A stretch of DNA of 46,309 nt from an uncultured Planctomycetales bacterium (GCA_964364455.1 CAYIMR010000002.1:35911-82219), one strand, 5' to 3'; positions 3,749 to 46,118 are shown, numbered from the stretch's first letter. Made by a program: numbers and translations. Notes: generated by a model not told the origin, from the sequence alone.

Positions 3749-5590
3749 TTACTTGACCCTTAGAAATTGTTTGTCGAGGAAGTCTTCCGAAAGTTCTACG
3801 ACCGTCGGGCGTCCGTGCGGGCAAGTAAAAGGATCCAGGCACTGGATCAGTTCATCACGCATGTGCTCGGCCTGTTGGGGTTTCAAAACATCACCAGCCA
3901 TGACCGAGGAGCGGCAGGCGCGCCGGGCGAGCGCGTCGTGATCGCCGCGGCGCAGCGGGCCACCTCCCAGGATGTATCTTGCCGCTTTTTCAATATCCTT
4001 CAAGAACGTCGGATAACTGTGTACCGCGATCGTTTCCTTGTCCCAGAGGTTAGTGTCGAGGCCGATCGTATTGAATTGATCCCGCGCTTTCTCCCAGACG
4101 AGCATTTCCTGGGTGGAGAGTTTGAGCAAAACGGGGCTTAAAAGTCGCTGGACTTCGACATCGCCTTTATTCATCTGCCGGATGAGGCGTTCGTAGGTGA
4201 TCCGCTCGGCCGCGGCGTGTTGGTCGATAACAAGCATCGCGCGCCCCGCCTGGAACAGTTGATATTTGTTCAGTAAGGCCCCAATGTAAATCGCGCCGGA
4301 TAATTTGCTCTGAAGGTTTTCCTGGTGATTTAATTCGGGAACAAAGAAAGCCTGCTGTTCTCTCGTTGCCGTCACCGCAGGGTAAGCATAATCTCCGCCT
4401 TGGGCCGCCTCAAAAATTTCCGTTCCCGGCGCGGAATCGAACGTCACCTCCGACGGGTGCGCGCCCATGAGCGCCCGTTCAACGACATCTTCTCTGGTCC
4501 CTGGCCCCTGGCCTCTGGTCACTGCTTGCGTTTGTCCCGTTCCCAAAAGCGTCTCCTCGCACAGCCGCCGCAGGATCGAACAGATTTTTTGTTCATCCCT
4601 GATCTTGACCTCGCGTTTAGTCGGATGGATATTGACGTCGATCTCCTTCGCCGGGAGATGGAGGGAGACGACAAAAAGTGGATACAGGTCTTTGGGCATG
4701 ATGAGCCGGTATACCTGGTTGAGATGAAAGCTGATCGCTTTATTCTGCACCGGCCGGCCGTTGACGAAGATAAACTGCATGTCCCGGCGGGCGCGTTTGA
4801 TGTTGATATCACCGAGGATCAAATCGACACGTAGGGACAGGCCTAGGCCTGTCCCTACGGCCAAAAGATGTTTTTCATCGACGTGCAGGACGTGCGCCAC
4901 GCGGCTTTTCGCGTCTGAACAAGGCGCGGCATCGACCAGATCCCTGCCTTCATGGGTTAATTGAAACCGCACGTTATGATGAAGCAGGGCATAGGGGATA
5001 AAGGTGTTGAGGATCTGATGGATCTCGGTTGTATCGGATTTGAGGAATTTCCGCCGGGCAGGGGTGTTGAAGAATAGTCCCTTGACCTCGATCTCGGTTC
5101 CGTGCCCGGGCATGGCGCAGGGACGCAGATCGAGCCTTTTACCACCGCGTATATGAATTTGCCACCCCGCCAAAGGCGGGGTGCCCCCGCGCCTGGTTTC
5201 ACCGAAGGTGGAACCAGCGGGGGCTTCTTTACTGCGCAACGTCACATCCGCGATGGCGCCGATGGAATAAAGGGCCTCGCCGCGAAAGCCCAGGGACTGA
5301 ATGTCATAGAGGTCATCGGCTTTTTCAATTTTGCTGGTCGCGTGGCGTGAGAAAATTTTTTCCAGATCGTCGCGTTCGATACCGTGGCCGTTGTCTTTGA
5401 TCTTGATCAGTGTTTTGCCGGCTTCCCGCAGGGAAACTTCGATCGTGTCCGCGCCGCCCGCCTGCCGGCGAGGCAGGGCATCGAGGGCGTTCTCAACGAG
5501 CTCCTTGATGACGGAGGCGGGCCGCTCGATGACCTCGCCCGCGGCGATCTTGCTGATGACTTCTTCTTTCAGGATGTGGACGGTAGACAT
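3749..5590 (-). CDS. mutL: DNA mismatch repair protein MutL (endonuclease type)
   Basis: The N-terminus KIAAGEVIERPASVIKELVENALDA is the GHKL ATPase signature. Other motifs present are FNTPARRKF, DQHAAAERITYE and CPHGRPT. It carries several GC-rich palindromic in-frame segments. Confidence 0.95.
   Translation of the reverse strand: MSTVHILKEEVISKIAAGEVIERPASVIKELVENALDALPRRQAGGADTIEVSLREAGKTLIKIKDNGHGIERDDLEKIFSRHATSKIEKADDLYDIQSLGFRGEALYSIGAIADVTLRSKEAPAGSTFGETRRGGTPPLAGWQIHIRGGKRLDLRPCAMPGHGTEIEVKGLFFNTPARRKFLKSDTTEIHQILNTFIPYALLHHNVRFQLTHEGRDLVDAAPCSDAKSRVAHVLHVDEKHLLAVGTGLGLSLRVDLILGDINIKRARRDMQFIFVNGRPVQNKAISFHLNQVYRLIMPKDLYPLFVVSLHLPAKEIDVNIHPTKREVKIRDEQKICSILRRLCEETLLGTGQTQAVTRGQGPGTREDVVERALMGAHPSEVTFDSAPGTEIFEAAQGGDYAYPAVTATREQQAFFVPELNHQENLQSKLSGAIYIGALLNKYQLFQAGRAMLVIDQHAAAERITYERLIRQMNKGDVEVQRLLSPVLLKLSTQEMLVWEKARDQFNTIGLDTNLWDKETIAVHSYPTFLKDIEKAARYILGGGPLRRGDHDALARRACRSSVMAGDVLKPQQAEHMRDELIQCLDPFTCPHGRPTVVELSEDFLDKQFLRVK
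4831..4860. repeat. family-A GC-rich palindrome in frame inside mutL
   Basis: GTAGGGACAGGCCTAGGCCTGTCCCTAC is a perfect 28-nt palindrome. The 28 nt at 4833-4860 are identical to 10004-10031. It is translated as VGTGLGLSLR. Confidence 0.9.
5163..5224. repeat. two adjacent GC-rich hairpins in frame inside mutL
   Basis: CACCCCGCC-AAA-GGCGGGGTG (5163-5183), then the imperfect GCCCCCGCGCCTGGTTTCACC-GAA-GGTGGAACCAGCGGGGGC (5183-5224). Together they encode ..APAGSTFGETRRGGTPPLAGW... Confidence 0.7.
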
Positions 5591-5672: not shown

Positions 5673-8278
5673 TCAAGGATTTCTTTCAATTCCCCTAATT
5701 TATTCATCGCCTCCAACGGCGTCATGGTATCAATGTCCATCGCCCGGATCGTTTCTTTGATGGTTTCCGCCATTGGGTCGACGGGCATGTGGAACATATC
5801 CAGTTGTTTTTCCGGCGCCTGTTCGCCTTTAAGATTTTCTTTCAAGTCATTTTTCAATTCTAATTGCGTCAATATGTGTTTGGCGCGGCCGATGATCGCC
5901 TTGGGGATGCCGGCCAATTTAGCGACGTAGATGCCGTAGCTGTCATCGGTCGAGCCGGGGATGATCTTGTGCAGGAAAATGACCTCATCTTTCCATTCTT
6001 TGACCGCGACGTTATAGTTTTTTGCGCCGGAGGCGCACCCGCCTTTGGCGGATACATTTCTGTCCGCAAGCGCCGTTAACTCATGGAAGTGGGTCGCGAA
6101 AAGCGTTCGCGTTTTGGTCGTTTGCAAATGTTCGGCGATCGCCCAGGCGAGGCTTAATCCGTCGTAGGTGCTCGTTCCCCGGCCGATCTCATCAAGGATG
6201 ATGAGGCTGCGGTTGGTCATGTTGTTGAGGATATCCGCCGTTTCGTTCATCTCGACCATAAAAGTGCTTTGGCCTTTGTTGATATCATCGTGCGCGCCGA
6301 TGCGCGTGAAAATTTTGTCGACGATCCCGATATGGGCGGAGGAGGCCGGGATAAAACTTCCCATCTGGGCCATGATGGTCAGGATGGCGGTTTGCCGGAT
6401 ATAGGTGGATTTCCCGGACATGTTCGGTCCGGTCAGGACGATCAGATGATTTTCTTCGCCATCGAGCAGGGTATCATTGGGCACAAAAGGACCGGCGAGT
6501 ATTTTTTCAACGACCGGGTGGCGGCCGTCTTTGATCTCCAGCAACGTATCATCGGCGATTCCCGGGGCAATGTAGCCCGGCGATTGGGCCAGCACGCGCA
6601 GGGAGTAGAGGGTATCGAGTGTGGCGATGTTTTGGCAAAATTGATGAAGCCGCGCCGAATGCGCCAGGACCTCCTGCTGGATTTCCTGCACGAGCGCGTT
6701 CTCGATCTTGGAGATCTTTTCTTCGGCGGTAAGGATCTTTTCTTCATATTCTTTGAGCGCGGGCGTGATGTATCGTTCGCCGTTAACGAGCGTTTGTTTG
6801 CGGATATAATCCTGTGGCGCAAGATGCTGGTTCGCCTTGGTGATCTCGATGTAGTATCCGAAAACCTGGTTGAACCCGACTTTAAGCGAATTGATCCCCG
6901 TGCGTTCGATCTCGTTTTCCTGGAATTTTTTAAGCCACTGCCGTCCGTTTTCTTGGATATCACGCAAGCTATCAAGTTCAGCGTGATATCCAACGCGGAT
7001 GATCTTTCCTTCGGGATGGGCGAGAGGGATCGTTTCATTGACGGCGCGGTCCAAATATTGGCGCAGGTCAGGGATGTCTTCGCAATCAAACAGGGAATTC
7101 CGGGACATGACGGGGTTGACCGCGTTCTGGATTGCGGGCAAAAGCGCTAACGTATTGCGGATCGCCAAAAGGTCTTTGGCGTGGGTGTAACCGCAACTTA
7201 ACCGTGAGATGTTTTTTTCAAGGTCTGGAATTTTATCGAGAAGATCTTTCAACTGCCGGCAGACTTCAGGATGGGCGCTTAACAGCCGGATAGCATCCTG
7301 GCGTTCGATAATATCCGGCACGTTTTTCAAGGGATGCGTCAGCCAGAACCGGAACATCCGCCGGCCCAGCGGCGTCAAAGTATGATCGAGCGTTTCGATG
7401 AGCGTGTCTAATTCCAGGCCGCGCGCGGCCGCCGGGGAGATAAAGACATAATCGTCGTCGTTGTACAGGGCGATACGGTCGATGTGTCTGAGCGGCTGTT
7501 TGTTCATCTCCCGCAGATATTCCAACAGCGCGCCGGCGCTTGAGGTGGCGCTGGTGAGTTCTTCGATGCCAAATCCATGAAGGTTGTGGACGGCAAAATG
7601 TTCGCACAGTGTTTTTCTGGCGATATCCTGGTTGAAGGACCATTCTCCGTACGGGCTTAAGGCGATATTTTTCGCGCGTAAAAGCGGATGTTCAAAAATA
7701 GGTTTGATTTTCGCTTCGGGTTCTTCCCCCTGCGGGTAAACGCATTCACAAATGGGGAGCTTGGCGATGAGTTCCGCCAGCCGCCCGTATCCCAGGGGAT
7801 ACTGGTTCGTTTGAATGGTCCCGCTGGTCGGATCGGTGAACGCAACTCCGATATTCTTTTCGTTGGGGCTTAAACACAACAGATACCGCGCGTCGCTGTT
7901 GTGCTCATCGAGATAGGTGCCGGCGGTGATGACGCGGATGACGTCGCGCCGGACAATGCCCTTGGCGAGCGCGGGCCGCCCATGGCGAGCCTCGCCTTCG
8001 GCGGGGTCTTCCATCTGTTCGCAAATGGCGACTTTGTAGCCGGATCTGATGATCCTGGCGATGTAATTGTCGGCGGCGTGCCAGGGCACCCCGCACATGG
8101 GGATCTTGTTCGAAGAACCTTTGCCGCGGGAGGTCAAAACGAGATCAAGCGTCCTGGATGCCAGCTTGGCATCATCATAAAACATCTCATAGAAATCGCC
8201 GAGGCGAAATAAGAGGATGCAGTCTTTGTGCTTCTCTTTTATAGAGCGGTACTGCGCGAGCATGGGGGTTTCGGACAT
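5660..8278 (-). CDS. mutS: DNA mismatch repair protein MutS
   Basis: MLAQYRSIKEKHKDCILLFRLGDFYEMFYDDA at the N-terminus, Walker A GPNMSGKSTYIRQ, STFMVEM and DEIGRGTSTYDG. Confidence 0.97.
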   Translation of the reverse strand: MSETPMLAQYRSIKEKHKDCILLFRLGDFYEMFYDDAKLASRTLDLVLTSRGKGSSNKIPMCGVPWHAADNYIARIIRSGYKVAICEQMEDPAEGEARHGRPALAKGIVRRDVIRVITAGTYLDEHNSDARYLLCLSPNEKNIGVAFTDPTSGTIQTNQYPLGYGRLAELIAKLPICECVYPQGEEPEAKIKPIFEHPLLRAKNIALSPYGEWSFNQDIARKTLCEHFAVHNLHGFGIEELTSATSSAGALLEYLREMNKQPLRHIDRIALYNDDDYVFISPAAARGLELDTLIETLDHTLTPLGRRMFRFWLTHPLKNVPDIIERQDAIRLLSAHPEVCRQLKDLLDKIPDLEKNISRLSCGYTHAKDLLAIRNTLALLPAIQNAVNPVMSRNSLFDCEDIPDLRQYLDRAVNETIPLAHPEGKIIRVGYHAELDSLRDIQENGRQWLKKFQENEIERTGINSLKVGFNQVFGYYIEITKANQHLAPQDYIRKQTLVNGERYITPALKEYEEKILTAEEKISKIENALVQEIQQEVLAHSARLHQFCQNIATLDTLYSLRVLAQSPGYIAPGIADDTLLEIKDGRHPVVEKILAGPFVPNDTLLDGEENHLIVLTGPNMSGKSTYIRQTAILTIMAQMGSFIPASSAHIGIVDKIFTRIGAHDDINKGQSTFMVEMNETADILNNMTNRSLIILDEIGRGTSTYDGLSLAWAIAEHLQTTKTRTLFATHFHELTALADRNVSAKGGCASGAKNYNVAVKEWKDEVIFLHKIIPGSTDDSYGIYVAKLAGIPKAIIGRAKHILTQLELKNDLKENLKGEQAPEKQLDMFHMPVDPMAETIKETIRAMDIDTMTPLEAMNKLGELKEILEDRR
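6023..6051. repeat. two small GC-rich hairpins in frame inside mutS
   Basis: TGCGCC-GGA-GGCGCA (6023-6037) and CCGCC-TTT-GGCGG (6039-6051). They encode the AKGGCASGA segment. Confidence 0.6.
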
Positions 8279-8935: not shown

Positions 8936-9178
8936 ATGGTTACGCGCATGAGGGAAAAAGGACAGGTCACCATTCCGGCACAGATACGGGAATCCCTGCA
9001 TCTGTCGAAGGATTCTTTGTTGTCTGTTGCCCGGGTCGGTGACGGGATTTTGTTGACACCGGGCCCCTCCGTCTTTGAATCCGTCTCGGCAAAGTTCGCG
9101 AAACAGGCGAAAGAAAAAGGTATCACCCTCCAGGATCTTTTGAAGGATTTGAAAAAAATCCGGCATCAAGAGTCGTAG
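8936..9178 (+). CDS. AbrB/SpoVT-family antitoxin
   Basis: GQVTIPAQIRESLHLSKDSLLSV is the SpoVT-AbrB swapped-hairpin motif. The protein is 80 aa, and the PIN gene starts immediately after its stop codon. Confidence 0.8.
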   Translation: MVTRMREKGQVTIPAQIRESLHLSKDSLLSVARVGDGILLTPGPSVFESVSAKFAKQAKEKGITLQDLLKDLKKIRHQES

Positions 9179-9640
9179 ATGGCCCTTCCTCAATACAGGA
9201 TTTTTTTCGATACGAGTGTGTATATCGCCGCCTTGCTTTCTCCCTGCGGCGCCGCCGGAGAACTCGTGCGTCTGGCTGAAACCGGTGTTATCCGGATGGT
9301 CGTTTCTGAAGAAGTGATCGTTGAGGCTGACCGGGTTTTGGCGGGGAAATTTCCGGAGTTAATCCAGGAAAGCCGCGGATTATGGAAACATCTCAACCCT
9401 GAAATGGCGCCCGATCCGACGGCAAGTCAAATCAAACCTTTCTTAGAGAAGCTCTCCAAAGGCGACGCTTCGATCCTTTGCGCGGCCCATCTGGCTTCTC
9501 CGAAGGTTTCAGCGTTTGTTACCTGGAATACCCGCGATTTTATGGCGCAGGGCGTTTCTTCCTTGGTGGATTGTCCGGTGGTTGTCCCGGCAGATTGCCT
9601 TATCCTTTTTAGAAAATGGGTAGCCCCTTTTTTGCGTTAA
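9179..9640 (+). CDS. PIN-domain toxin (PIN_3-like)
   Basis: FFDTSVYIAALLS (first acidic residue), SEEVIVEADRVL, GDASILCAAHLA and VTWNTRDF, in the order expected for PIN acidic residues. Confidence 0.8.
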   Translation: MALPQYRIFFDTSVYIAALLSPCGAAGELVRLAETGVIRMVVSEEVIVEADRVLAGKFPELIQESRGLWKHLNPEMAPDPTASQIKPFLEKLSKGDASILCAAHLASPKVSAFVTWNTRDFMAQGVSSLVDCPVVVPADCLILFRKWVAPFLR

Positions 9641-9730: not shown

Positions 9731-9760
9731 GTGATGGCGATTGTTCTTCTTGGTTTGGCG
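9731..9760 (+). repeat. right copy of the 30-bp direct repeat flanking the TA cassette
   Basis: See 8823-8852. Confidence 0.8.
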
Positions 9761-10729
9761 CTGATTGTTTATCTGGACGCCCGGATGCTGCGCCGGCTAT
9801 GCCGGCGCAGCCGTCGCGATGGGCGTTTGTTCAATGACGTATTTGCCGTTTCCCCGGTTTTAACCGTTATTATCGCGGGGTTAATTTTATTTCATCTTTT
9901 TGTCGTTGAGAACTCTCCGCAAAACCTGCCACAATTCCTTTTTGTCGCTTTGTTGCCGATCTACCTTTTGCGCCGGATACGTTTTCTAAAATCCGTTGGT
10001 GGCAGGGACAGGCCTAGGCCTGTCCCTACGGAGACCGAAACCCTGGTTTCCGACGCGTATAACGTCATCCTGATCTGGTTTCTGGCCATGGTCGTCACCG
10101 GCGCTTTTTTCAAAAGCGCTGGTGAAATATTCCCGGTATTTGAATCCCGAATGGGACAACTGCTTCTGTCCGCGGTTTTTTCCTCGGCCATCGCGCTTGT
10201 CCTGATCGCCAGGGCGTCACAAAAATTTTCTGATCAAGGATTTCTTTACAATGCCGGATTGCGTAAAGGCGAGAAATCCGTCATGGAGGTGTTCGTTGTC
10301 CCGGCGCTGGTCGGGGTGTTTTTTGCCGTCGTTTCTTCAGCGATCATCTGGCTGCGCCACGTGCAGCCGGTGACGCCTTTAAGCGCGGTCGTTGCCGCGA
10401 CGGATTCGGTTTGGTTGTTCGCGATATTTTTGGCCATGGCGATCCTGGTGGCGCCTTTGATCGAAGAGATCATCTTCCGGGGATATTTTTTCCACGTCAT
10501 CCACCGGGCCAAAGGCGAGCGGTCCGCCATTTATGTTATTTCCCTGGTGTTCGCTTTTCTTCACGTCGGGCAATATTGGGGGGACTGGCCCGCGATTGTG
10601 ATGGTCATGCTGCTGGGCTTTGCCTTGGCGATTTTACGGGCCCGGACGGGAACGACGCTGGCGAGTATCATTGCCCATTACGCATATAACGCCGGAGTGA
10701 CCATTATTCCATTCTATATGGTCAAATAG
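9731..10729 (+). CDS. CPBP-family intramembrane glutamic endopeptidase (CAAX protease-like)
   Basis: EEIIFRG, FAFLH and HYAYN motifs in a polytopic membrane protein. ATG 9734 is the likely start. It contains a palindromic insert at 10004-10031. Confidence 0.85.
   Translation: MMAIVLLGLALIVYLDARMLRRLCRRSRRDGRLFNDVFAVSPVLTVIIAGLILFHLFVVENSPQNLPQFLFVALLPIYLLRRIRFLKSVGGRDRPRPVPTETETLVSDAYNVILIWFLAMVVTGAFFKSAGEIFPVFESRMGQLLLSAVFSSAIALVLIARASQKFSDQGFLYNAGLRKGEKSVMEVFVVPALVGVFFAVVSSAIIWLRHVQPVTPLSAVVAATDSVWLFAIFLAMAILVAPLIEEIIFRGYFFHVIHRAKGERSAIYVISLVFAFLHVGQYWGDWPAIVMVMLLGFALAILRARTGTTLASIIAHYAYNAGVTIIPFYMVK
10004..10031. repeat. family-A GC-rich palindrome in frame inside the CPBP protease gene
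   Basis: AGGGACAGGCCTAGGCCTGTCCCTACGG, translated as RDRPRPVPT in a loop between TM segments. Confidence 0.9.
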
Positions 10730-11112: not shown

Positions 11113-12598
11113 AAAATGTATTTTTATTTTGATGATGGCCATTTGGGCCGCGGGTGGGACCCCTACGGGCCGCGCGCGGGCGCAATCTTTGAACGCGGTT
11201 TCAAACAGCGTCTCACAGCCGGATGGCCCTGAAACGACGACGTCCGCTGAAGTGACTGCCGCGAAAGTCGTTAAAACAACACTCGACACACTGGATGTCC
11301 AGGAAATGGACATTAAAGAGGTCCTCAAGAGAATAGCTTTTCAAAGCGGCCTTGAGATCATTTTAGACGAAGATATCAGCGCGCGGGTGACGATCTATTT
11401 GAAGGACGTCGATGTTTTTGACGCTTTGCGGATCATCCTGGATACCAATAACCTGGCTTACAGCCAGGATCCTGGAGAGACAGAAGGCAGGCAGGCCGCG
11501 GCCGTGCATGTGATGACGGCCCGGAATTTCGAGGGCCGCTTCGGTTATCCGTTCAGCCAGAAGATCCAAACGAAGATCATCCCGCTTTCCCACGCGCGGC
11601 CTGAGAAGGTAAGCGCGCTTTTGGACAAGATGAAAGGCGCGGCCGGCAAGGTCATTTACAGCGAGGGCACCAGATCGTTTATTCTCATCGACGCTGCGCA
11701 ACAGCTCACGTCCATGAGCGATCTTGTCCGGGAGATGGACGTTCCCGTGGAATCCAAAACGTTTGATCTGCGTCACGTAAAAGCCAGGGACATGGCCCCG
11801 CGTATCCAGGAATTCTTGACCAGGAACGTCGGGAGGGTCGAATTCGGCGAACGCGAAACGGCCTTGACCATCGATGACACGCCGGCGCGGCTCGTGGAGA
11901 TCGGTAAACGTATTGAAGAGCTCGACAAACCCGCCAAGGAGGTTTTTCTTGATGTCAAGATCCTTCAGATCATCCTGAACGACGAAAACCGCCAGGGAGT
12001 TGACTGGGAGGCGATCGTTTCCGATTATCAGAGTTTTCCTTTCACGGGTTTTGAGGGAAAAGGGGCCGGCATTCTAAGCGTTGGAACTGTTTCGGAAGAA
12101 GATTATGTCGTGCTCCTGGATGCCTTGGACACCGTCGGCATGCTTAATACGGTATCGAATTTGAAAATGACGGCGGGTGCCGCGGGGCGTAATGAAATTT
12201 TGATCCGGGGCAAGGACTTGCTGGCGGATTTTGAGCCGCAGGAACCGCAGGAGGGGTTGACGGGCAAAACGGAAGTGCTTTATGGTGTTGGTTCCAGGCT
12301 GGGAGATGACGCGCAGATCATGTTGGAGATCCAGCCACAGGTGCTGGGTGAGTCTGTCCCGCTCCGCGGGACCTACTCGGCCGGTGAGAAAAAAGGCCTA
12401 ACGCTCAAACTTCAGGAAGGCACCACGGTTGTCGTCGGCGGGCTGTTCAAGAGCGTTCATGTTGAGGCAACACGCAAGATCCCCTTACTCGGCGATCTGC
12501 CGTTATTGGGGTTCGCGTTCCGGCTGCAGGGACAACGCCTGCGGGAAACGGAGATCATCGTCTTTTTAACGCCGAAGGTGGTTGTGAAAGAAAAGTAA
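11102..12598 (+). CDS. secretin (short PilQ/GspD-family outer-membrane channel)
   Basis: A signal peptide is present. The N-domain reads DVQEMDIKEVLKRIAFQSGLEIILDEDI. The C-terminal secretin domain reads GTTVVVGGLF..KIPLLGDLPLLGFAFR..TEIIVFLTPKVV. It overlaps the merR stop by 11 nt. Confidence 0.85.
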   Translation: MMIRKCIFILMMAIWAAGGTPTGRARAQSLNAVSNSVSQPDGPETTTSAEVTAAKVVKTTLDTLDVQEMDIKEVLKRIAFQSGLEIILDEDISARVTIYLKDVDVFDALRIILDTNNLAYSQDPGETEGRQAAAVHVMTARNFEGRFGYPFSQKIQTKIIPLSHARPEKVSALLDKMKGAAGKVIYSEGTRSFILIDAAQQLTSMSDLVREMDVPVESKTFDLRHVKARDMAPRIQEFLTRNVGRVEFGERETALTIDDTPARLVEIGKRIEELDKPAKEVFLDVKILQIILNDENRQGVDWEAIVSDYQSFPFTGFEGKGAGILSVGTVSEEDYVVLLDALDTVGMLNTVSNLKMTAGAAGRNEILIRGKDLLADFEPQEPQEGLTGKTEVLYGVGSRLGDDAQIMLEIQPQVLGESVPLRGTYSAGEKKGLTLKLQEGTTVVVGGLFKSVHVEATRKIPLLGDLPLLGFAFRLQGQRLRETEIIVFLTPKVVVKEK

Positions 12599-12726
12599 GA
12601 AGTAAAGAGTGAGAAGTAAGAAGAGTAAAGAAAAAAGGTGGATAATGTAAAACTGAGGTAATCAGGCAGGCAAAATCCAAACCGGCGTTATTTTTTTTAC
12701 TTCTTACTTCCTTCTTCTTACTTCTA
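12594..12726. repeat. heptamer-word inverted array (AGTAAGA words) with a ~65-nt loop
   Basis: AGTAAGAAGTAAAGAGTGAGAAGTAAGAAGAGTAAAG pairs with TTTACTTCTTACTTCCTTCTTCTTACTTCTA. Confidence 0.75.
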
Positions 12727-12735
12727 ACTTTTACC

Positions 12736-13854
12736 GTGTATATGCTTCGAAATCATTTTTCAATTTGGCTGCTTATCTTGTCCCTCGCGCTGTTCGCCAG
12801 CGGCTGCGCGACAGTCCCCGGTGGGCGGATGACGGATTCCTCCCCGCGGCCAAAGGCTCCCCGCGGGGAGGGAGCCTTTGGCCGCAAGCGGATCTACCTT
12901 AAGGACCTGTGCGACCGGTATTCGCTCGCTTGGCAATGGGACCATATTTCCCAGACGGTGGACCTGAAAATAGACGGCATCAATGTCCGTCTTCTGGTCG
13001 GTAGCAGCGTCTTGTTGCTGGGCAAGGAGCAGGTCAGGCTGAACACTCCGGTTTTGATCGACCAGAGTTCGGTGATGCTGCCCTATGATTTCAAGGCAAA
13101 GGTGATGGACAGATTCCCAGATTTATTTACCGCGAAGGCGCCATCACGATCGCGGGTCACGCGGGTCCCGCGCGTGTTCCGCAAGCTCCGGGAAGTGGTC
13201 ATCGATGCCGGTCACGGCGGCAAAGATCCCGGCGCCATCGGCGTCACAGGCATGAAGGAAAAGACGGTCGTTCTTGATGTTGCCCAGCGGCTAAAAAAGT
13301 TACTGGAGGCCGCGGGGGTCAAGGTGACGATGACCCGCAAAGACGATACGTTCATTTCCCTGCAGGAGCGTACCGAGATCGCCAGCCGATCCAAGGCGGA
13401 TCTGTTTATCAGCATCCACGCGAACGCGAGCTCCGCGCGCAGCGTCCACGGCGTGGAGGCGTATTGTTTGAAGGATTTAGGGACACTTGAGAAAAATGAG
13501 GCCCAGCGCCAGTCGAACCATAAATTGATGTTCAAAAATCTGGCCATGAAAAAAGGTTCTTTGAACCTTGAGGATATCGTTGAGGATATGCTTTATACGC
13601 ACAAGCAGAGCGTTTCTCCAACACTGACGGCAAAACTTGCGGGCCGGGTGGCCCAGACGGCCAAGGCGAATGATCGGGGCGATAAGCAGTCGCGTTTTTT
13701 TGTCCTGCGCAACACGTTGATCCCGGCGGTGTTGGTGGAGATCGGTTTCGTGACCAATCCTAAAGAGGGGCGGTTACTGAAGACCGGCGATTACCGGCAG
13801 AGAATCGCCGAGGGACTGGCGAACGGGATTTTGGGATACAGGGATGGGAAATAA
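12736..13854 (+). CDS. N-acetylmuramoyl-L-alanine amidase (Amidase_3), lipoprotein
   Basis: Lipobox LFASGC, VVIDAGHGGKDPGAIG and DLFISIHANAS. It contains a 39-nt palindromic insert at 12847-12885. Confidence 0.9.
   Translation: MYMLRNHFSIWLLILSLALFASGCATVPGGRMTDSSPRPKAPRGEGAFGRKRIYLKDLCDRYSLAWQWDHISQTVDLKIDGINVRLLVGSSVLLLGKEQVRLNTPVLIDQSSVMLPYDFKAKVMDRFPDLFTAKAPSRSRVTRVPRVFRKLREVVIDAGHGGKDPGAIGVTGMKEKTVVLDVAQRLKKLLEAAGVKVTMTRKDDTFISLQERTEIASRSKADLFISIHANASSARSVHGVEAYCLKDLGTLEKNEAQRQSNHKLMFKNLAMKKGSLNLEDIVEDMLYTHKQSVSPTLTAKLAGRVAQTAKANDRGDKQSRFFVLRNTLIPAVLVEIGFVTNPKEGRLLKTGDYRQRIAEGLANGILGYRDGK
12847..12885. repeat. family-B 39-nt hairpin element in frame inside the amidase gene
   Basis: CGGCCAAAGGCTCCCCGCGGGGAGGGAGCCTTTGGCCGC with a 14-bp stem. 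Translated as RPKAPRGEGAFGR. Confidence 0.9.
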
Positions 13855-14698
13855 CAATCCAATAGGTGTTTTCGATTCCGGCTTGGGCGGGTTGACCGTG
13901 GTCAAGGAATTGATCCGGCAGCTGCCGCAAGAGAGCATCGTTTACTACGGCGATACCGCGCGCGTGCCTTACGGAACCAAGTCCAGGGAATCCATCATCC
14001 GCTTTTCCCATGAGAACACGCGGATCCTTTTAGAACGTGGCGTCAAAATGGTCGTTGTGGCGTGTAACACTTCTTCGAGTTACGCGCTTGTCCAATTGCG
14101 CAAGCATTTTCATTTACCGATCGTGGGCGTTATCGATCCCGGCGCGCGCAAGGCCGCGGAGGTGACGCGTAACCGAAAAGTGGGGGTCATCGCCACGCCG
14201 GCGACGGTCAACAGCCGTTCCTACGCCAAGGCCATTTTCCGTTACGACCGCGCGATTCAAGTGTCCAGCCAGGCGTGTCCTTTGTTCGTTCCATTGGTGG
14301 AGGAAGGCTGGCTGCGCAACCCCGTGACCACGGCCGTGGCCCGCGAATATTTGAAACCTTTACAAAAGACTGGTGTTGACACGCTGGTCTTGGGATGCAC
14401 GCATTATCCGTTGCTGAAAAGCGTTCTCAAAGACGTGATGGGAGCGAAGGTGGCCCTGATCGATTCCGCCACGGAGGTTGCCGCCGAGGTCAAACGTGTC
14501 TTGCAGGACAGACAACTATTGCGCCCGTCCGCCGTTAGGCTCCCTTCGGCCAAAGGCTCCCCGCGGGGAGGGAGCCTTTGGCCGCGGGGAGGAGGAAGAC
14601 GGGCGCAATACAGCTTTTTGATCAGCGACCGGCCGCAACAGTTCGAAAAAACGGCCAGGGAGTTTTTGGGGTACAATATCCGGGCGGTAAAAATCTAA
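13844..14698 (+). CDS. murI: glutamate racemase
   Basis: IGVFDSGLGGLTV, VVACNTSS and LGCTHYPLL. It contains the same 39-nt palindrome at 14547-14585. Confidence 0.93.
   Translation: MGNNNPIGVFDSGLGGLTVVKELIRQLPQESIVYYGDTARVPYGTKSRESIIRFSHENTRILLERGVKMVVVACNTSSSYALVQLRKHFHLPIVGVIDPGARKAAEVTRNRKVGVIATPATVNSRSYAKAIFRYDRAIQVSSQACPLFVPLVEEGWLRNPVTTAVAREYLKPLQKTGVDTLVLGCTHYPLLKSVLKDVMGAKVALIDSATEVAAEVKRVLQDRQLLRPSAVRLPSAKGSPRGGSLWPRGGGRRAQYSFLISDRPQQFEKTAREFLGYNIRAVKI
14547..14585. repeat. family-B 39-nt hairpin element in frame inside murI
   Basis: Identical 39 nt on the same strand, but read in a different frame as SAKGSPRGGSLWPR. Confidence 0.9.
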
Positions 14699-14704
14699 AT
14701 TGTT

Positions 14705-14772
14705 ACGTCGCTCGTCGTCCGTATCTCGTATTTCGTTACGAGATACGAGATACGAGCGACGAAATACGAAAT
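14705..14772. repeat. heptamer-word hairpin (ACGANNN words) between murI and queD
   Basis: Hand pairing of 14705-14736 with 14738-14772 gives about 25 bp with 1-2 mismatches or wobbles. Confidence 0.85.
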
Positions 14773-14773: not shown

Positions 14774-15136
14774 ATGTTTGAGCTTTCCGTCAAAAGTCAT
14801 ATCGCCTCGGCCCATTTTCTAACAGGATACCAGGGCCGGTGCAAGGACCTGCACGGCCACACCTGGCACATCGAGGCCGTGATCGCCGGCGAAGAGCTGG
14901 ACAGAATCGGCATGGTGGCGGATTTCGCAGGTCTTAAGAAACAATTGAACGAATTCTTGATGCCCCTCGACCACGTGTGTCTGAATGATCTGGAGTATTT
15001 CAAGCGCAACAATCCGACGACTGAAAATATTGCCCAGTATGTCTACCAGAATTTTGCCAAGGTGATCGCTCCGTTGCAGATCAAAAGGGTCCAGGTGTGG
15101 GAATCGGAAACATCGAGTGTGGTGTATTACGAGTAA
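14774..15136 (+). CDS. queD: 6-carboxy-5,6,7,8-tetrahydropterin synthase
   Basis: SAHFL..CKDLHGHTW..GMVADFAGLK..LDHVCLND..NPTTENI matches the QueD/PTPS family pattern. Confidence 0.9.
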   Translation: MFELSVKSHIASAHFLTGYQGRCKDLHGHTWHIEAVIAGEELDRIGMVADFAGLKKQLNEFLMPLDHVCLNDLEYFKRNNPTTENIAQYVYQNFAKVIAPLQIKRVQVWESETSSVVYYE

Positions 15137-15197
15137 GTCACAAGGTCACAATGCCACCAAGTCACCTGTTTGACTTGTGACCTGGTGACCTGGTGAC
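15137..15197. repeat. heptamer-word hairpin (GTCACNN words) between queD and queC
   Basis: CAAGTCA-n6-TGACTTG core, with GGTCAC/GTGACC outer pairs. Confidence 0.8.
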
Positions 15198-15929: not shown

Positions 15930-16619
15930 ATGAAAGCTAAAATTTCCGAAATATTCCACTCCATCCAGGGCGAAGGCAAGTACACCGGCCGGGAGCAGGT
16001 GTTCGTGCGGTTCTTTGAGTGCAACATGCACTGCGTCTGGTGCGACACGCCCAATACCATCGGCGACACGACCCGCCATTACAAAGAGTACAGCCTTGAG
16101 GAATTGCTCTCCGAGGTGAGAGGCCTGTGGCCGGGCTGCCATTCGGTGAGCTTAACCGGCGGCGAGCCGCTGATGCAGAAGGATTTTATCAAAAAGCTTT
16201 TGCCGTCTTTAAAAAAAGAAGGGATGCGTTCCTGCCTGGAGACCAACGGGATCCTTGACCGGCACCTCGCCGAGATCATCGATGACGCGGATATTATCGC
16301 GATGGATTTCAAATTGCCCAGTTCGACCAAATGCCGGCCGTACTGGGAAGAACACGCGGCGTTCTTGCGGATCGCCCGGCAAAAAGAGGTTTTTATCAAG
16401 GCGGTCATCTCCAGCGACACGGACAAAGAGGATATCGCGCGTTCCGTGGAGCTGGTTGCGGGGATCGACCCGAACATTCTTTTTATCCTGCAGCCAAATT
16501 ATTTCGAGCGGCAAAACGGCGCCCTGGACCGCTGTCTGGATTATCAGGATTATTGCCGGCAATATCTCACCGACGTCAAAGTGATGTCGCAGATGCATAA
16601 GATGTGGAAAATTCGATGA
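15930..16619 (+). CDS. queE: 7-carboxy-7-deazaguanine synthase (radical SAM)
   Basis: ISEIFHSIQGEGKYTG and CNMHCVWCDT (CxxxCxxC). The track start at 15894 lies in the repeat array, so ATG 15930 is preferred. Confidence 0.9.
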   Translation: MKAKISEIFHSIQGEGKYTGREQVFVRFFECNMHCVWCDTPNTIGDTTRHYKEYSLEELLSEVRGLWPGCHSVSLTGGEPLMQKDFIKKLLPSLKKEGMRSCLETNGILDRHLAEIIDDADIIAMDFKLPSSTKCRPYWEEHAAFLRIARQKEVFIKAVISSDTDKEDIARSVELVAGIDPNILFILQPNYFERQNGALDRCLDYQDYCRQYLTDVKVMSQMHKMWKIR

Positions 16620-16698
16620 GTCACAAGGTCACAACGTCACCAGGTTACGCGGGTGACAGGTGACAGGTGACAGGTGACAGGTGACGTGGTGACCTGGT
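16620..16698. repeat. heptamer-word hairpin between queE and queF, with five perfect GTGACAG units
   Basis: GTCACAAGGTCACAACGTCACCAGGTTAC, loop gcgg, then (GTGACAG)x5 GTGACGTGGTGACCTGGT. Confidence 0.85.
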
Positions 16699-17952: not shown

Positions 17953-18591
17953 ATGACTGAACTTATCATCGCCACCACCAATCCCGGCAAGCTGCGGGAG
18001 ATCAGGGAACTCCTCAAAGATTTGGATCTTGAGATCACTTCCTTATCCGATTATCCGGGCGCGCCAAAGGTCGAGGAAGATGGCAAGAATTTCGCCCAGA
18101 ACGCGCTCAAGAAAGCGGCTACCATCGCTTTGTACACGGGCAAACTCACCCTGGGAGAAGATTCGGGATTGGAAGTAAGGGCATTAGGAAATAAACCGGG
18201 AATTTATTCAGCCCGTTTTTCTCTGCCCAAGGCCAATAAATCCTCGGGCAGAGCCTGCTCGGCCGGGGCAAACGCGGTGGATAAAAGAAATAACGCCAAA
18301 TTGCTGCGGTCGCTTCGCGGCGTGTCTTTTAAAAAACGCCAGGCGCGTTACCGCTGTTTCGCCGCCCTGGTGGACGGTCAGCGCATCATCGACGTCGTGA
18401 GCGGCTCCTGCGCCGGGCTTATCGCGCTTCGCGGCCGCGGCAAAAACGGCTTCGGATACGATCCGCTGTTTTTCCTTCCGCGATACAACAAAACTTTCGG
18501 AGAGCTGGACCCGGCCATCAAAGCCAGGATCAGCCATCGGGCGAGAGCATTAAGCAAAGTAAAGAAAGTGTTAAAGAAATACATCGGATAG
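17953..18591 (+). CDS. rdgB: dITP/XTP pyrophosphatase (Ham1/RdgB family)
   Basis: LIIATTNPGKLREI, EDSGLEV and FGYDPLF..ISHRARAL. The track start at 17872 lies in the repeat array, so ATG 17953 is preferred. Confidence 0.9.
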   Translation: MTELIIATTNPGKLREIRELLKDLDLEITSLSDYPGAPKVEEDGKNFAQNALKKAATIALYTGKLTLGEDSGLEVRALGNKPGIYSARFSLPKANKSSGRACSAGANAVDKRNNAKLLRSLRGVSFKKRQARYRCFAALVDGQRIIDVVSGSCAGLIALRGRGKNGFGYDPLFFLPRYNKTFGELDPAIKARISHRARALSKVKKVLKKYIG

Positions 18592-18594
18592 TTG

Positions 18595-18656
18595 GTATCT
18601 CGTATCTCGTCGCTCGTATCTCGCACGAAATACGGTATACGAGATACGAAATACGA
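18595..18656. repeat. heptamer-word hairpin (ACGANNN words) between the convergent rdgB and AsmA-like genes
   Basis: GTATCTCGTATCTCGTCGCTCGTATCTCG pairs with CGAAATACGGTATACGAGATACGAAATACGA. Confidence 0.8.
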
Positions 18657-21600
18657 TTAAAAGATTCCCTTCAATATCGTCCCAATCCCCTCCTTCAACC
18701 CATCCTTGAGGATATCCGTCGTTTTTTCCAGGATATTGAAGGGAAGGGTCTGGACTTTGTACTGCGGATTGCGCAGGGTTCCGGTGAGCTTTATGGAAAC
18801 ATAATCTCCCTGGGACAGCAAAAGCGAAGGGATCTTTTTAAGCGACCTGGATTCGGCGGCGACCAGTTCCCCGAAGGTCGGCGCGATGTCGAAGTTGATG
18901 TTCCCCTCAAGGTTGATCCATCCTTGTCCTTTAAGACTGATGCTGCTGCTGTTCATCGTGGCGTCAGCGGTCGTGATCTTCCCGTCGGCCATGGTAAAAT
19001 TTGCCTGCCCGTCGGTAAAGACGACGTCCTTGAATTCCGGGATGAGCAGCACATCCGGAAGACCATCCAGGATGTTCCAGCGAAAAAGATGTCCTTTTGT
19101 GACGGACAACGAGCCGTCGCCTTTCCAGCGCGTTGGGTTTTGGGGATCACCGCTTAGATTAACCAGCGCGGAAAGACGTCCGGCCAGGAATTCGTTCTTC
19201 GGCAGGTTACTCTCTCGTAAAACGGCCAGGTCCATGCCTTCCAGTGATCCGGTCAACCGCGCGATGGGCTCATCCTGCGCCAGGTCCATCGAAGAAATGA
19301 GGTTGAGGTTGCCGTTATAGGCGCGGCCCGTGAGGTTGCACTTGCTGATGTGCCGGTCGCGCTGCGCGTATTCGATGGCCCCGTCATCGAGGTGAAACCT
19401 GTTGAGGGATACCGTCGGCGCGCGGGCGGTAAACGTCAGGTCCCAGTCCTGCCAGTTTTTCGGCCTTCCTTTAAACAGGCCTTCACCGGAGAACGTGCCG
19501 ACGGGCTGGAGTTTCACGAGACGGTCTTTAAGCGCGGACGGGAAGGCGCTTAAGTCCTCGAGGCTCAAGGTGAACGTTCCGCGGATGTCCATATCCGGCT
19601 CGTTTCCTTCCAGCAGGTGCACGTCGCCCCTGATGTCCAGCGAGCTGTTGAAATATTTTCCCGTCAGGAAAATAATTTGAAAGGCCTGGTTGAGGATCTT
19701 GAATTGGGCTGAGGCGTTGAGATCTCGCGAGGCCACCTGGAGGTCCACGACCGGCCGCGAAAAATCAGCGAACTGGCCGTTGAGGGTGTATTGGTTTTTT
19801 TGGTAAAGGCCCTGGAGATTTTTCCAGACGACCAGATCTTTTTGATAGGCGATCTCACCGGAAATATTCGTGATATCCCCTGAAATTTTTGGGCTGGCGA
19901 TCGCCGCGTTTTGGAATTTGGCGTTGAACCGGACGTCCGCGGCGGCGGGGTTCTGGACGTCTCCGATGTAAGAGGCCGCGGCGGCGGCCGTTCCGGCAGG
20001 GGCGATGTTCGTTTTTTCCGTCAGAACCGGAAAGGCCGTGAACAGTTTTTGCAGGTCAAGGTTGTCGGTTTTCGCCCGGACGTTCAAAACGGGCCTGGAA
20101 AAGTTGATCAAGGATCCGGAGAGCAGGATATCGGTTCCCTGCGTCTGAAAAGTGAACTGGCCGCTGGCAAGCCGGTTGGTCTCGATCTGGACCGTCCCGC
20201 GTATTTTCTCAACCGACCGGAGGTATGGGACATTTTTGAGGACCGCGTCGGTAAAATGCAATTCGCCGAAGTAGAGGTATTTATTGTCCTGGCCGTTGGG
20301 GTCGTATTGACAGGTCAAGTTCCCGTCGGGGTGCCCTTCCAGGGCGATCTGCGGCGTCAATTGCAGATGAGCATTCTTGAAATCCAGGTCTGACTTGACC
20401 TCGCAACCGTCTTGTTCACAGACCAATAAGGTCTGTGAACTTTTGAAGTCCGCCTGCAGGTATCTATCCGGGCCCCAATCCATACGCGCGCCGGATAATT
20501 GCAGGTCGCTTAAGATGCCGAGCTTTCCTTTGTCGAACGCGAACTTTGTTTTTTGCGTCGTCAGATCCCCGCGCAGTTTATAGTCAACGGAAAACGCCGC
20601 ATCCATCTCGTTGATGTTCAGGGCCGCTTCCAGGCGGATGCCACGCTCATCGTTACGCATGACAAAGTTGTCGGCCCGCAAGGCATGTGCGCGGATACCT
20701 TTGTTTTCCCCCGTGACCACGCGCGTTTCTTCCAGGATGAGGCTGCCATGGGCGGACATTCCCTGGGGAGCAATATCCAGCGATTTTATCTCGGCGCTTA
20801 TCTTGCCATTGACCGAACGTCCTTGCGCGAACGTGATAAAAGTTGAGTCAGATTCCAGATGCCCGCTGGCCGTCCAGCGCCCGTCCTGGCGGGTCAGGGA
20901 AACGCCGGTTGCCCGCGCCGAAGTGACGATCCTTTTCTCCCCCGCAAGCTCCACGTCCATCTTGTCGATGGTCACGCCGCCCTGGGCCTGCAGCCCGTCG
21001 CGTTCCCAATTCAGGTTCAAATCCAGCGCGGTGACGATACCGTCTTGAAAATGGATATCCTGCGGCAGGGGAATAAGGGACAAATATTGGGCCAGCGCGA
21101 TACGCTCCGCCATGACGCGGGTGGAAAGCTTGCGCGATTCGAGGTAATAATTCCCTTTGATGTTGATGGTGGCCTCCCTGCGAGGGATTTTACCTCCCAG
21201 GGTAAAGCGGACGATCTTGTTGAGCGAGAACCGGGCGTCGAGCTCGATGCCGCTGATGACCTCATGAAAATTTTCCGGTACGGTCCGGTCGGTGTAGGCG
21301 ATCTCACCGTCTTTGACGATGATTTTGCGCGGGGCGATGATCCAGGAGCTTTTGGTTTTGCCGGAGGTTGAAGATTTGTGGTCCTCCAGCCCCGCCAACG
21401 GCGGGGCCAGCAGATCGGAGAAATTCCATCGGGTCGTTTCTTCACGCGTGATCTGCGCGAACGGGCCGCTCACGCGTATCGACGGGATCAGGATGATCTT
21501 TTTCTGGAATACCGGCGCCAGCAGAACATGGAAGGTGACCTCATCGGCCTGCAGAAAGACGCGCGCGGGATCGTCTTTCTGGTAGACGGTCAAGTTACGC

Positions 21601-29024: not shown

Positions 29025-29768
29025 ATGATCCTTATCTTTAAACACATCGAGATCGAAGGTCCGGAAACGATCGGCCAGTTTTTTGTTGATGAGGGTTTTG
29101 AGATCAAGATCCTTGGCCTGCATAAAGGGGATCGCCTTCCTGGAACATTTGATCATTTGGATGCCGTGATCAGCCTAGGCGGCCCGATGAATGTGTATGA
29201 GGAAGGCAAGTACCCGTTTTTAAAGGAAGAAAATGTCTTTTTGCAGGGGATTCTGGAGCAGGGGATTCCGTTTATGGGGATCTGTCTGGGAGGCCAGTTG
29301 CTCGCCAAAGCTTCCGGCTCAAAAGTGGGACGCTCACCGGAAAAAGAGATCGGATTTGCGCCGGTCCAGTTGACGGCCGCTGGTAAGAAAGATCCGTTAT
29401 TTCAAGGTGTTGCGGGACCATTGGACGTATTCCAATGGCATGAAGATATGTTTGAAGTTCCCGCCGCTGGCACGCTGCTGGCTTCATCGTCGGTGTGTCC
29501 TAACCAAGCGTTTCGCGTGGGCAAATGCGCTTACGGCGTGCAATTCCATATCGAGATCACCGATAAAAGCATCCGGGAATGGTCTGATGAATATTTTGAA
29601 GCAGGGGACCGGACATTTGCCGAAAAGAAGAAGGCGATGCTCGAGGATTATCAGAAGAAAAAAGACCAATTCCACGGCGTTGCTGATAAAATATACATGA
29701 ACTTTCTGGATATAATCTTGCAGTCACAAAGTCACCAGGTCACCAAGTCACCGGAAAAAATCGGGTGA
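29025..29768 (+). CDS. class I glutamine amidotransferase (GuaA-like GATase1 domain protein)
   Basis: PFMGICLGGQLL (nucleophile Cys) and GVQFHIE (His/Glu). The last ~15 codons read into the GTCAC array. Confidence 0.85.
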   Translation: MILIFKHIEIEGPETIGQFFVDEGFEIKILGLHKGDRLPGTFDHLDAVISLGGPMNVYEEGKYPFLKEENVFLQGILEQGIPFMGICLGGQLLAKASGSKVGRSPEKEIGFAPVQLTAAGKKDPLFQGVAGPLDVFQWHEDMFEVPAAGTLLASSSVCPNQAFRVGKCAYGVQFHIEITDKSIREWSDEYFEAGDRTFAEKKKAMLEDYQKKKDQFHGVADKIYMNFLDIILQSQSHQVTKSPEKIG

Positions 29769-31474: not shown

Positions 31475-31530
31475 TATTACATATTGAAAGTTGTACTTGC
31501 AATATGTAAATTATATGTTATGCTGTTTTT

Positions 31531-32703
31531 ATGATCAAACGCGCCCTGGAAACAACGTTAAAACAAGCGGCCAGGCAGTATCCGGTCGTGCTCTTGACGG
31601 GCCCCCGGCAATCCGGGAAAACGACTTTGTGCCGGGCAGTTTTTCACGGCAAGCCCTATATTTCTTTTGAAAATCCCGATTACTGCGAGTTTGCCCGGAA
31701 AGATCCACGCGGTCTCCTGGACAAATACGGTGAAGGCGCGATTTTTGACGAAGTCCAGCGTTGTCCCGATATCCTGTCTTACCTCCAGGGGATTGTGGAC
31801 GAGCATCCCGGTAACGGCCGATATATCCTCACCGGCAGCCAGAATATCCTCCTTTTAAAATCCGTCCAGCAATCTTTGGCGGGGCGCGTTGCCATTTTAA
31901 GACTGCCGCCTTTTTCTTATAGCGAAGCGGCCAAAACTTTAGCGTCATATTCTTTGGACAAGATTTTGTATGCCGGCGGTTATCCCCGTATTTTTGACCA
32001 GAAGCTTGAGCCCGCCGATTACCTTCGCAATTACACCGCCAGTTATCTTGAGCGCGATGTGCGGGAGATCATCCACGTGAAAAATCTTTCCAGTTTCCAG
32101 AAATTTTTGAAGCTCTGCGCCGGGAGGGTTGGACAGATATTGAATTTATCGAGTATCGGCAATGACCTGGGGATCTCTCATACGACGATCAGGGAATGGC
32201 TGTCAGTTCTGGAAACCAGCTATATTGTCTATCTTTTGCCGGCGTATTACCGCAACTTCAAGAAACGTATCGTCAAGTCGCCCAAATTATATTTTCATGA
32301 TGTCGGACTGGCTTCCTATCTTTTGGGGATAGAAAGTTCCGAATATATGAGCCGGGATTCGTTAAGAGGAAATTTATTCGAGAATTATGTGGTAACCGAG
32401 ACAATCAAACATTTTTGGTCCCACGGCCGCAATGCCCCGCTTTATTTTTTCAGGGATAATATCGGTAATGAGGTGGACCTGCTTATTGAAAAAGCGCGTC
32501 AGGTCGCCGCCATCGAGATCAAGGCGGGGCAAACAGTCAACAGTGACTGGTTTAAAGGGCTGGAATATCTCAAGCGGGTGATGGGGAAAACGGTTTTATC
32601 GCGGCATCTGGTTTACGCCGGCAAAGAGGAATACGTAAGGGAAGGGACACAGGTCCTGTCCTTTCGCGGCGTCAGCGGGATGGTTGGATCGATAGAAAAA
32701 TAG
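31531..32703 (+). CDS. AAA_14/DUF4143-family ATPase
   Basis: Walker A GPRQSGKTT, DEVQRCPD (Walker B-like), LTGSQN and a C-terminal DUF4143-like region. Confidence 0.85.
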   Translation: MIKRALETTLKQAARQYPVVLLTGPRQSGKTTLCRAVFHGKPYISFENPDYCEFARKDPRGLLDKYGEGAIFDEVQRCPDILSYLQGIVDEHPGNGRYILTGSQNILLLKSVQQSLAGRVAILRLPPFSYSEAAKTLASYSLDKILYAGGYPRIFDQKLEPADYLRNYTASYLERDVREIIHVKNLSSFQKFLKLCAGRVGQILNLSSIGNDLGISHTTIREWLSVLETSYIVYLLPAYYRNFKKRIVKSPKLYFHDVGLASYLLGIESSEYMSRDSLRGNLFENYVVTETIKHFWSHGRNAPLYFFRDNIGNEVDLLIEKARQVAAIEIKAGQTVNSDWFKGLEYLKRVMGKTVLSRHLVYAGKEEYVREGTQVLSFRGVSGMVGSIEK

Positions 32704-46025: not shown

Positions 46026-46081
46026 GACAATAAGTCGCGAGTATGAGAGTTTCGCAAAGTTTTTGACCGTGATTAAAACAA

Positions 46082-46118
46082 ACGAAATACGAACGACGAA
46101 CGACGAGCGACGAACGAC
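46082..46118 (+). repeat. single-arm heptamer array (ACGANNN x5) upstream of glpK
   Basis: ACGAAAT ACGAACG ACGAACG ACGAGCG ACGAACG. No clear complementary arm was seen nearby. Confidence 0.7.

Follow-up and report, generated by a model that had tools for sequence, protein, structure and literature searches.

A GTAG-footed palindrome within mutL and a CPBP protease gene of a groundwater Omnitrophota bacterium, a probable double-foot REP of RAYT-linked type

How does one 28-nt palindrome come to lie in frame within two unrelated genes? The question is raised by a 46,309-nt stretch of bacterial DNA (CAYIMR010000002.1:35911-82219; here the window, with positions counted from the first letter of the whole stretch), which carries the sequence once in mutL and once in the gene for a CPBP/Rce1-like intramembrane protease. 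We conclude that the palindrome is very probably a repetitive extragenic palindrome (REP) of the double-foot GTAG kind, one of a family with the pattern GTAGGGACAGG-N6-CCTGTCCCTAC that is tied to subclass 2.4 of TnpA_REP, the REP-associated tyrosine transposases (RAYT), and that is carried here by an Omnitrophota bacterium of groundwater. The double-foot class is already described and is not a novel one. The two genes and the two copies are:

3749-5590, minus strand: mutL, 613 amino acids, with Pfam domains HATPase_c, DNA_mis_repair and MutL_C; host of copy 1
4831-4858, within mutL, minus-strand reading VGTGLGLSL(R): REP copy 1, GTAG-GGACAGG-CCTAGG-CCTGTCC-CTAC, a perfect 28-nt double-foot palindrome
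9731-10729, plus strand: CPBP/Rce1-like intramembrane protease gene, 332 amino acids; host of copy 2
10002-10029, within the protease gene, plus-strand reading RDRPRPVPT: REP copy 2, GCAGGGACAGGCCTAGGCCTGTCCCTAC, with a single GTAG foot, on the minus strand

The mutL copy, GTAGGGACAGGCCTAGGCCTGTCCCTAC, is a perfect palindrome over its 28 nt, and over 30 nt counting the flanking C...G (4830-4859). An initial reading made from the sequence alone (the sequence-only reading) had reported that mutL and the protease gene share a 28-nt palindrome in different frames; string comparison bore this out, 4833-4860 and 10004-10031 being identical at all 28 nt, and both of its translations, VGTGLGLSLR in MutL (minus strand) and RDRPRPVPT in the protease (plus strand), were reproduced. 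The protease-gene copy runs GCAG...CTAC, against the GTAG start of the mutL copy, and is complementary at 13 of 14 pairs, so that the mutL copy has both feet (GTAG...CTAC) and the protease-gene copy one intact foot. A 24-nt core matches twice in the window, versus no match in 100 dinucleotide-preserving shuffles. As single-stranded DNA the mutL copy is predicted to fold at -16.2 kcal/mol (z = -6.7), and its 28 nt lie within the 20-40 nt of the short, stable stem-loop by which a double-foot GTAG REP is recognised. The third frame of the palindrome holds two TAG stops.

Syntenic loci from related species were compared with the window: L013, L014 and L015 (~80-92% DNA identity to it), together with L156 (GCA_040960315.1) and L157. 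At orthologous sites the arms are constant; the centre varies between genomes and is common to the copies within each genome:

window, 2 copies: centre CCTAGG
L013, 3 copies: centre TCTAGA
L014, 2 copies: centres TTTTAAA and TTTA (7 and 4 nt)
L156, 1 copy: centre TCGCGA
L157, 1 copy: centre decayed, CCGCGG-like

The differences between genomes are paired substitutions that keep the palindrome perfect. Such symmetric substitutions, together with centres shared within a genome, must on this sequence evidence reflect recent within-genome copying or overwriting from a putative genome-specific source, not independent drift of each copy. The same pairing bears on the idea that the peptide is what is selected, as a useful loop motif, to which we give almost no credence: in MutL the peptide does replace a beta-hairpin of the same length, but selection on it is excluded because the two genes read their copies in different frames, which yields unrelated peptides, and the changes between genomes (e.g. 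GGCCTAGGCC to GGTCTAGACC) compensate one another at the DNA level regardless of the amino acids.

The family is widespread in metagenomes. When metagenome contigs were scanned with one CTAC foot required, at least 120 loci came back, spanning 31-68% G+C; the matches listed hold 129 copies, to which the following counts refer. The centre is TCGCGA in 76, GCATGC in 12 and TCTAGA in 4, with single CpG-transition variants in others (TCACGA/TCGTGA in 10, TCGCAA in 3). GT...AC feet stand on both sides of 101 copies, and the side that the scan left unconstrained has a GT foot in ~80-85%. Flanks extend the inverted repeat only to GT/AC in 59 copies; other extensions are locus-specific. Most copies are intergenic, 108 lying outside long open reading frames (ORFs); among the 21 within them the VGTG frame is used 16 times, the RDR frame three times and the third frame twice, with the TAG absent or mutated in both of the latter. 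The same loci carry further exact 28-nt palindromes of the form GTAG-N20-CTAC whose inner arms are different but compensated (e.g. GTAGGGGCACGGCGCGCCGTGCCCCTAC, GTAGAGACGCGATTAATCGCGTCTCTAC). Viral contigs scanned with AGGGACAGG-N6-CCTGTCCCT gave 20 matches, five of them reading GTAGGGACAGGTCGCGACCTGTCCCTAC.

This spread decides against a local, independent origin of each copy by replication template switching (snap-back synthesis) with no mobile element, which we regard as highly improbable. Hairpins do form in that way in this lineage: mutS of L014 holds a 30-nt perfect palindrome (7771-7800, TCCTCTGGAATACGATCGTATTCCAGAGGA) that arose when 21 nt duplicating the neighbouring sequence in inverted orientation were inserted, the mark of such switching, and many other coding indels among the four syntenic genomes are hairpins with lengths that are multiples of 3. 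The arms of the REP, however, cannot be derived from the sequence flanking its sites, 28 identical nt occur in two unrelated genes, and the same arms recur at the unrelated loci counted above and around RAYT-like genes; template switching is disfavoured because local events cannot yield one sequence at unrelated sites. Another candidate, a miniature inverted-repeat transposable element dependent on a DDE transposase, was rejected, there being no consistent target-site duplication and no DDE transposase enriched nearby.

Could the hairpin be kept for a host function in RNA or DNA, as a terminator, mRNA stabiliser or translation pause, and have been co-opted within genes? Some intergenic copies (L046, L119, L062) do cap terminator-like hairpins with A-runs and T-runs, and REPs in general have been proposed as RNA elements (PMC3733652). 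We nonetheless think this quite unlikely: a terminator within mutL or the protease gene would be harmful, the element is patchily present among close orthologues, and no Rfam family matches it. In Rfam the window gave no match at the gathering score, and at 14 loci the palindromes drew only sub-threshold matches to generic hairpins.

Copies with a GCATGC centre (L046, L059, L067, L094, L103, L119, L127, L135, L149, L153) nearly always cap a longer perfect hairpin with 5-21 extra bp of sequence unique to each locus, some with A- and T-runs like those of bidirectional terminators; on these sequences the arrangement points to insertion into hairpin tips or to outward growth of the palindrome. A scan of a genome collection with a 20-nt core found six loci, the window's own copies not among them: four terminator-like hairpins without GTAG feet, from unrelated phyla, and two contig ends, both of one Omnitrophota metagenome-assembled genome. 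As much would be expected of a 10-nt half-site where hairpins are numerous. The 20-nt core GGACAGGCCTAGGCCTGTCC occurs once each in L001, L002, L003 and L005 (Dehalococcoidia, Bacilli, Acidobacteriaceae, Pontibacter), where it forms hairpins without GTAG feet, some flanked by A-rich and T-rich runs and terminator-like; they could be remote members of the family or, hairpins being numerous, coincidental matches.

Evidence that ties the family to a transposase comes from the metagenome loci. We searched with local phmmer, using as probe the E. coli TnpA_REP (its sequence confirmed identical to PDB 4ER8 chain A, and without a match in a Pfam scan), and then with a hidden Markov model built from the matches. 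RAYT-like ORFs were found in 13 loci, all of which had been fetched solely via the palindrome. They match the NCBIfam model NF047646, "REP-associated tyrosine transposase" (E 1e-10 to 1e-16), and weakly Pfam Y1_Tnp, and carry the motifs PNH[IVF]HG, WQRSF and YIxNNP. Both ends of these genes have REP copies 6-130 nt away, and further copies stand in frame within them, between HuH and Y, where all nine aligned ORFs encode a VGTGRDLSL-type peptide; at L149 the inner and flanking copies are both GCATGC-centred. A profile search returned at least 7975 relatives, under the JGI label "REP element-mobilizing transposase RayT", those named being from Bacteroidota, Patescibacteria, Spirochaetota (Leptospiraceae) and Cloacimonadota. 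In several RAYT-like proteins (P0241, P0254, P0265, P0269, P0274, P0309, P0316, P0343) the embedded REP is often expanded to half-REP arrays, such as VGTGRD repeats or (QQSVDLSL)n, and the HuH-to-Y loop of RAYT-like proteins ranges from ~20 to ~90 residues.

These features are those of TnpA_REP subclass 2.4 (Bertels group 4), whose transposases have the motifs NH[IFV]H, WQ and YIxNNP and some of whose REPs are of a "double foot" form, with GT[AG]G at the 5' end and C[TC]AC at the 3' end (Quentin, 2018; BMC Genomics 19:475; PMC6006769). The likeness lies in the feet on a long perfect hairpin, the transposase motifs, the REPs found on either side of the transposase gene and, in frame, within it, and the scatter over many phyla; REPs within tnpA_REP itself, between HuH and Y and with the frame undisturbed, are a reported unique feature of the subclass (PMC6006769). 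What departs from that account is the setting of the window copies, in housekeeping genes of an Omnitrophota host with no RAYT gene in view. Genome-specific symmetric centres and the loss of target codons, both seen here, are likewise absent from PMC6006769.

The transposase also bears on whether the 11-6-11 palindrome is kept as the binding or crossover site of a dimeric DNA enzyme, for instance a Xer-like tyrosine recombinase, or a restriction-modification enzyme for which the centre is the recognition sequence. The 11-nt conserved arms would suit such an enzyme, as would a 6-nt centre that varies yet stays palindromic even at the positions of a would-be hairpin loop, and CCTAGG, TCTAGA, TCGCGA and GCATGC are classic type II recognition sites. 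We still hold this to be very unlikely, since the gene clearly associated with the copies is that of a Y1 HUH transposase, and no recombinase or restriction-modification gene is enriched beside the copies. The centres of L014 are 4 and 7 nt long, unoriented recombination sites in essential genes would do harm, and a symmetric centre has a simple origin if double-foot REPs could derive from inverted REP dimers through deletion of the middle part (Quentin, 2018; PMC6006769).

Where, then, does the double-foot REP sit in its two host proteins? Copy 1 takes up a variable beta-hairpin where the DNA_mis_repair domain starts (MutL amino acids 245-253), a position at which Aquifex MutL (PDB 5X9Y) reads "AEREGITLRAFV". 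L015 and all more distant MutL orthologues have a palindrome-free loop there; these loops are mutually homologous (e.g. RGQFPEYGLKAF, KQAFAEEHLFAH) and, compared in this way, clearly look ancestral. The loop measures 45 nt without the palindrome versus 42 nt in the window (-3 nt, one codon shorter), and because the palindrome-free loop is the longer by a codon, the 28-mer stands in for ~31 nt and is not mere added length. In the protease, copy 2 falls in a variable loop that precedes the Rce1-like Pfam domain on its N-terminal side. The motif RDR[PSA]RPVPTE is found in many CPBP orthologues of 72-100% identity; P0124, P0135, P0141, P0144 and P0152 are without the element, and their loop length is unchanged. 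PVP residues shared by some of the "empty" loops hint at decay of a former copy. To judge by the alignments, the element replaces loop codons in MutL and in the protease instead of lengthening them.

The sequence-only reading had seen here a family of in-frame palindromic insertions under selection for frame preservation. The repeated palindrome, in frame in two unrelated genes, stands; plain insertion does not, the net change being -3 nt in MutL and 0 in the protease. Selection for an open frame is plausible, given two TAGs in one frame and the use of the open frames by copies in long ORFs. That reading was to be given up if no further copies existed and the encoded residues were conserved among orthologues; at least 120 further loci are now among the matches listed, and in many MutL and CPBP orthologues the palindrome-encoded residues are not conserved. 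It had also proposed looking for polymorphism between strains or metagenome samples. Six contigs encode the exact MutL protein; Logan supplied one of them and ENA assemblies of Hainich groundwater the other five. These six assemblies, 99.4-99.9% identical to the window and of the same population, show no variation at either palindrome site. Named homologues of MutL and of the CPBP protease belong to Candidatus Omnitrophica/Omnitrophota.

Among MutL orthologues the same loop has been occupied in several lineages. In a neighbour-joining tree, carriers of the palindrome at this site (site A) fall in three separate clades, which would mean either repeated gain at one site or spread by recombination. 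A second MutL site carries the same REP, read as RDRSRPVPT, in P0004 (the MutL of L013), P0011 and P0014, and the MutL of L015 carries a different 28-mer of like design, GCAGGGAACGCAGATCTGCGTTCCCTAC. In the window the second site (5161-5217) holds two adjacent hairpins that are unrelated to the REP and add 14 codons, EAPAGSTFGETRRGGTPPLAG; this insert is present in four separate MutL clades. The second site is empty in L014 and L015 and in L013 holds the GGGACAGG REP. Exact-sequence and peptide searches of the literature for the element found nothing, and the arm sequence GGGACAGG is absent from the literature searched and from the supplements of the main survey of GTAG REPs discussed below (PMC3733652).

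Selfish palindromic DNA that lies in frame in genes, is tolerated at the protein surface and is patchy among orthologues is reminiscent of a known bacterial system. This is the Rickettsia palindromic elements (RPE), reportedly described by Ogata and colleagues in Science in 2000. RPE-1, however, is ~100-150 bp long, restricted to Rickettsia and without a known transposase, whereas the window element is 28 nt long, RAYT-linked and of Omnitrophota; its size, its host and its unrelated sequence rule out membership. The REPIN/RAYT system of Pseudomonas fluorescens, which Bertels and Rainey are said to have described in 2011, resembles our family in its genome-specific variants and in hairpin repeats that a domesticated Y1 transposase copies within the genome; REPINs, unlike the window element, are inverted pairs of imperfect REPs, ~100 nt long and reportedly strictly extragenic.

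Closer in form is the superfamily of GTAG-tagged REPs, known from eight phyla including Planctomycetes and Verrucomicrobia (Di Nocera, De Gregorio and Rocco, 2013; BMC Genomics 14:522; PMC3733652). That survey, which also mentions RPE-1, RPE-4 and RPE-6, describes in-frame intragenic GTAG REPs, many of them in genes for replication and repair, with the highest number in the Verrucomicrobium Opitutus terrae, and notes that the TAG of the tag can serve as a stop codon (PMC3733652). The window element is likewise a short GTAG-tagged palindrome of a family that is mostly extragenic and sometimes in frame in ORFs, with presence in the Planctomycetes-Verrucomicrobia-Chlamydiae (PVC) superphylum. Classical GTAG REPs differ in having one unpaired tag and imperfect stems, mostly of 6-9 bp (up to 13 bp), whereas the window element is a perfect 28-mer with tags at both ends that pair with each other; mutL and the CPBP gene are absent from the intragenic-REP hosts listed in PMC3733652.

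Several points weigh against reading the window palindrome as a RAYT-mobilised double-foot REP. The 46-kb window has no RAYT-like ORF, nor have the syntenic loci of Omnitrophota (L007-L015, L156 and L157), and there are no Omnitrophota among the named top RAYT matches; the transposase association holds for the palindrome family in related loci, not for the window's own genome. The scores of the RAYT-like ORFs against NF047646 (41-61 bits) are below the curated cut-off of 80, partly because the match is split by inserts. A Pfam scan (E <= 1e-5) of 150 ORFs beside copies gave housekeeping genes only, with no transposase enrichment; the scan missed the RAYT link because the RAYT-like ORFs, though among the 150, mostly score too weakly on PF01797. 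A VGTGRDLSL-type peptide stands at the same place in nearly all of the 120 RAYT relatives listed, often with half-REP arrays, a share inflated because candidates were collected by shared 5-residue words. Copy density (2 in the 46-kb window, 3 in 22 kb of L013, 2 in 22 kb of L014) is biased, the loci having been chosen via the palindrome. Lastly, the copies are unlike clean insertions: target sequence of similar length is gone, which published REP mechanisms do not account for.

We suggest the following mechanism. It is established that TnpA_REP, a Y1 HUH enzyme, binds the REP hairpin and its GTAG foot and cleaves, whereas REP dissemination is still poorly understood (Messing, 2012; Corneloup, 2021). 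A TnpA_REP/RAYT of subclass 2.4 would recognise the hairpin as single-stranded DNA, and by analogy with the metagenome loci we infer that such an enzyme in the window's own genome moved both copies. Copies would spread, or be overwritten, within a genome from a genome-specific source, and most would land between genes. Within a coding region a copy would survive only if on balance it alters the length by a multiple of three, is read in either of the two TAG-free frames and falls in a surface loop that tolerates it; both window copies would be survivors of such filtering.

One possibility for the loss of ~31 nt (mutL) or an equal length (CPBP), and for the repeated hits on the same loops, is the overwriting of earlier REP remnants. 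A more specific version, which we consider unlikely, is that the REP variant now current in a genome of this Omnitrophota lineage repeatedly overwrites in-gene REPs and their loops, TnpA_REP exchanging them like cassettes at the two GTAG feet. If true, such exchange would explain the symmetric genome-specific centres, the occupation of the same loops in separate lineages and the exchange of codons at constant overall length; if the 28-mer were lost exactly, this would then shift the mutL frame and make the REP a reversible mutator switch.

The window and its syntenic genomes hold many other repeats, recorded here as separate observations. Hairpins number 12 in the window versus ~3 in Markov simulations (maximum 11), a modest excess that we did not use as evidence. 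Lineage-specific hairpin-forming insertions, all multiples of 3, are found in mutL (5457-5477, 21 nt, directly after ATPase motif I, ENALDA|LPRRQAG|GA), in mutS (6029-6052 and 7976-8005, 24 and 30 nt) and in the CPBP gene (9797-9814, 18 nt); the last, which gives rise to the palindrome 9787-9811, is found in some close orthologues and missing from others. A second palindrome family of ~46 nt, CGGCCAAAGGCTCCCCGCGGGGAGGGAGCCTTTGGCCG, without GTAG feet, occurs at 12838-12885 (amidase gene) and 14540-14593 (Asp/Glu racemase gene). In the amidase gene L014 has a shortened form and L015 none; in the racemase gene L014 has a copy about as long as the window's and L015 a short related stretch. L013 lacks the family. 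A 36-nt hairpin, CCAGCCCCGCC-ACC/AAC-GGCGGGGCCAG, is 89% identical between 1563-1601, in the C-terminus of a giant protein, and 21380-21418, in an AsmA/DUF748-like gene, and may be another in-gene repeat family.

Tandem 7-8-nt repeats occur in many intergenic spacers, at 1708-1939, 12593-12734, 14703-14771, 15136-15197, 16619-16685, 18589-18656, 29722-29752, 44417-44464 and 46075-46135; their units (CAGGGTA, AAGTAAG, TACGAGA, GGTGACA, ACGAACG and others) vary between spacers and between syntenic genomes, and often form inverted blocks able to make long hairpins. A 109-nt direct repeat, 87% identical (31370-31478 and 32838-32946), brackets an AAA_14/DUF4143 ATPase gene (31531-32703), a type of gene that in L015 and L157 lies elsewhere, next to the CPBP position; the repeats and the differing position suggest a mobile cassette. 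Between a pilin-like gene and the CPBP gene, 8936-9640 encodes a MazE-like antitoxin and a PIN-domain toxin, a pair absent from L013, L014 and L156. The window opens (2-2149) with the 3' end of a giant gene, called at more than 11,000 amino acids on the source contig (upstream part: L007 13442-21842); its last 715 amino acids have no Pfam match, and at its position the syntenic genomes have giant proteins of fused glycolytic enzymes (PGK/PGM/PGI domains).

Within an already described class, what may be new is the Omnitrophota groundwater host, the replacement of loop codons, the presence of the element in the same MutL and CPBP loops across several separate lineages, and the genome-specific symmetric centres. 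For annotation, VGTG[RL][DG]LSL and RDR[SP]RPVPT in metagenomic proteins are signs of inserted REPs and should not be taken for functional motifs. Orthologous sites form a graded series, from empty to occupied, decayed or with different centres, and offer natural material on the still unsettled matter of how REPs disseminate and are homogenised. If the double-foot reading is right, RAYT-linked REP hairpins extend beyond the catalogued phyla, into Omnitrophota, and there remodel surface loops of core proteins such as MutL.

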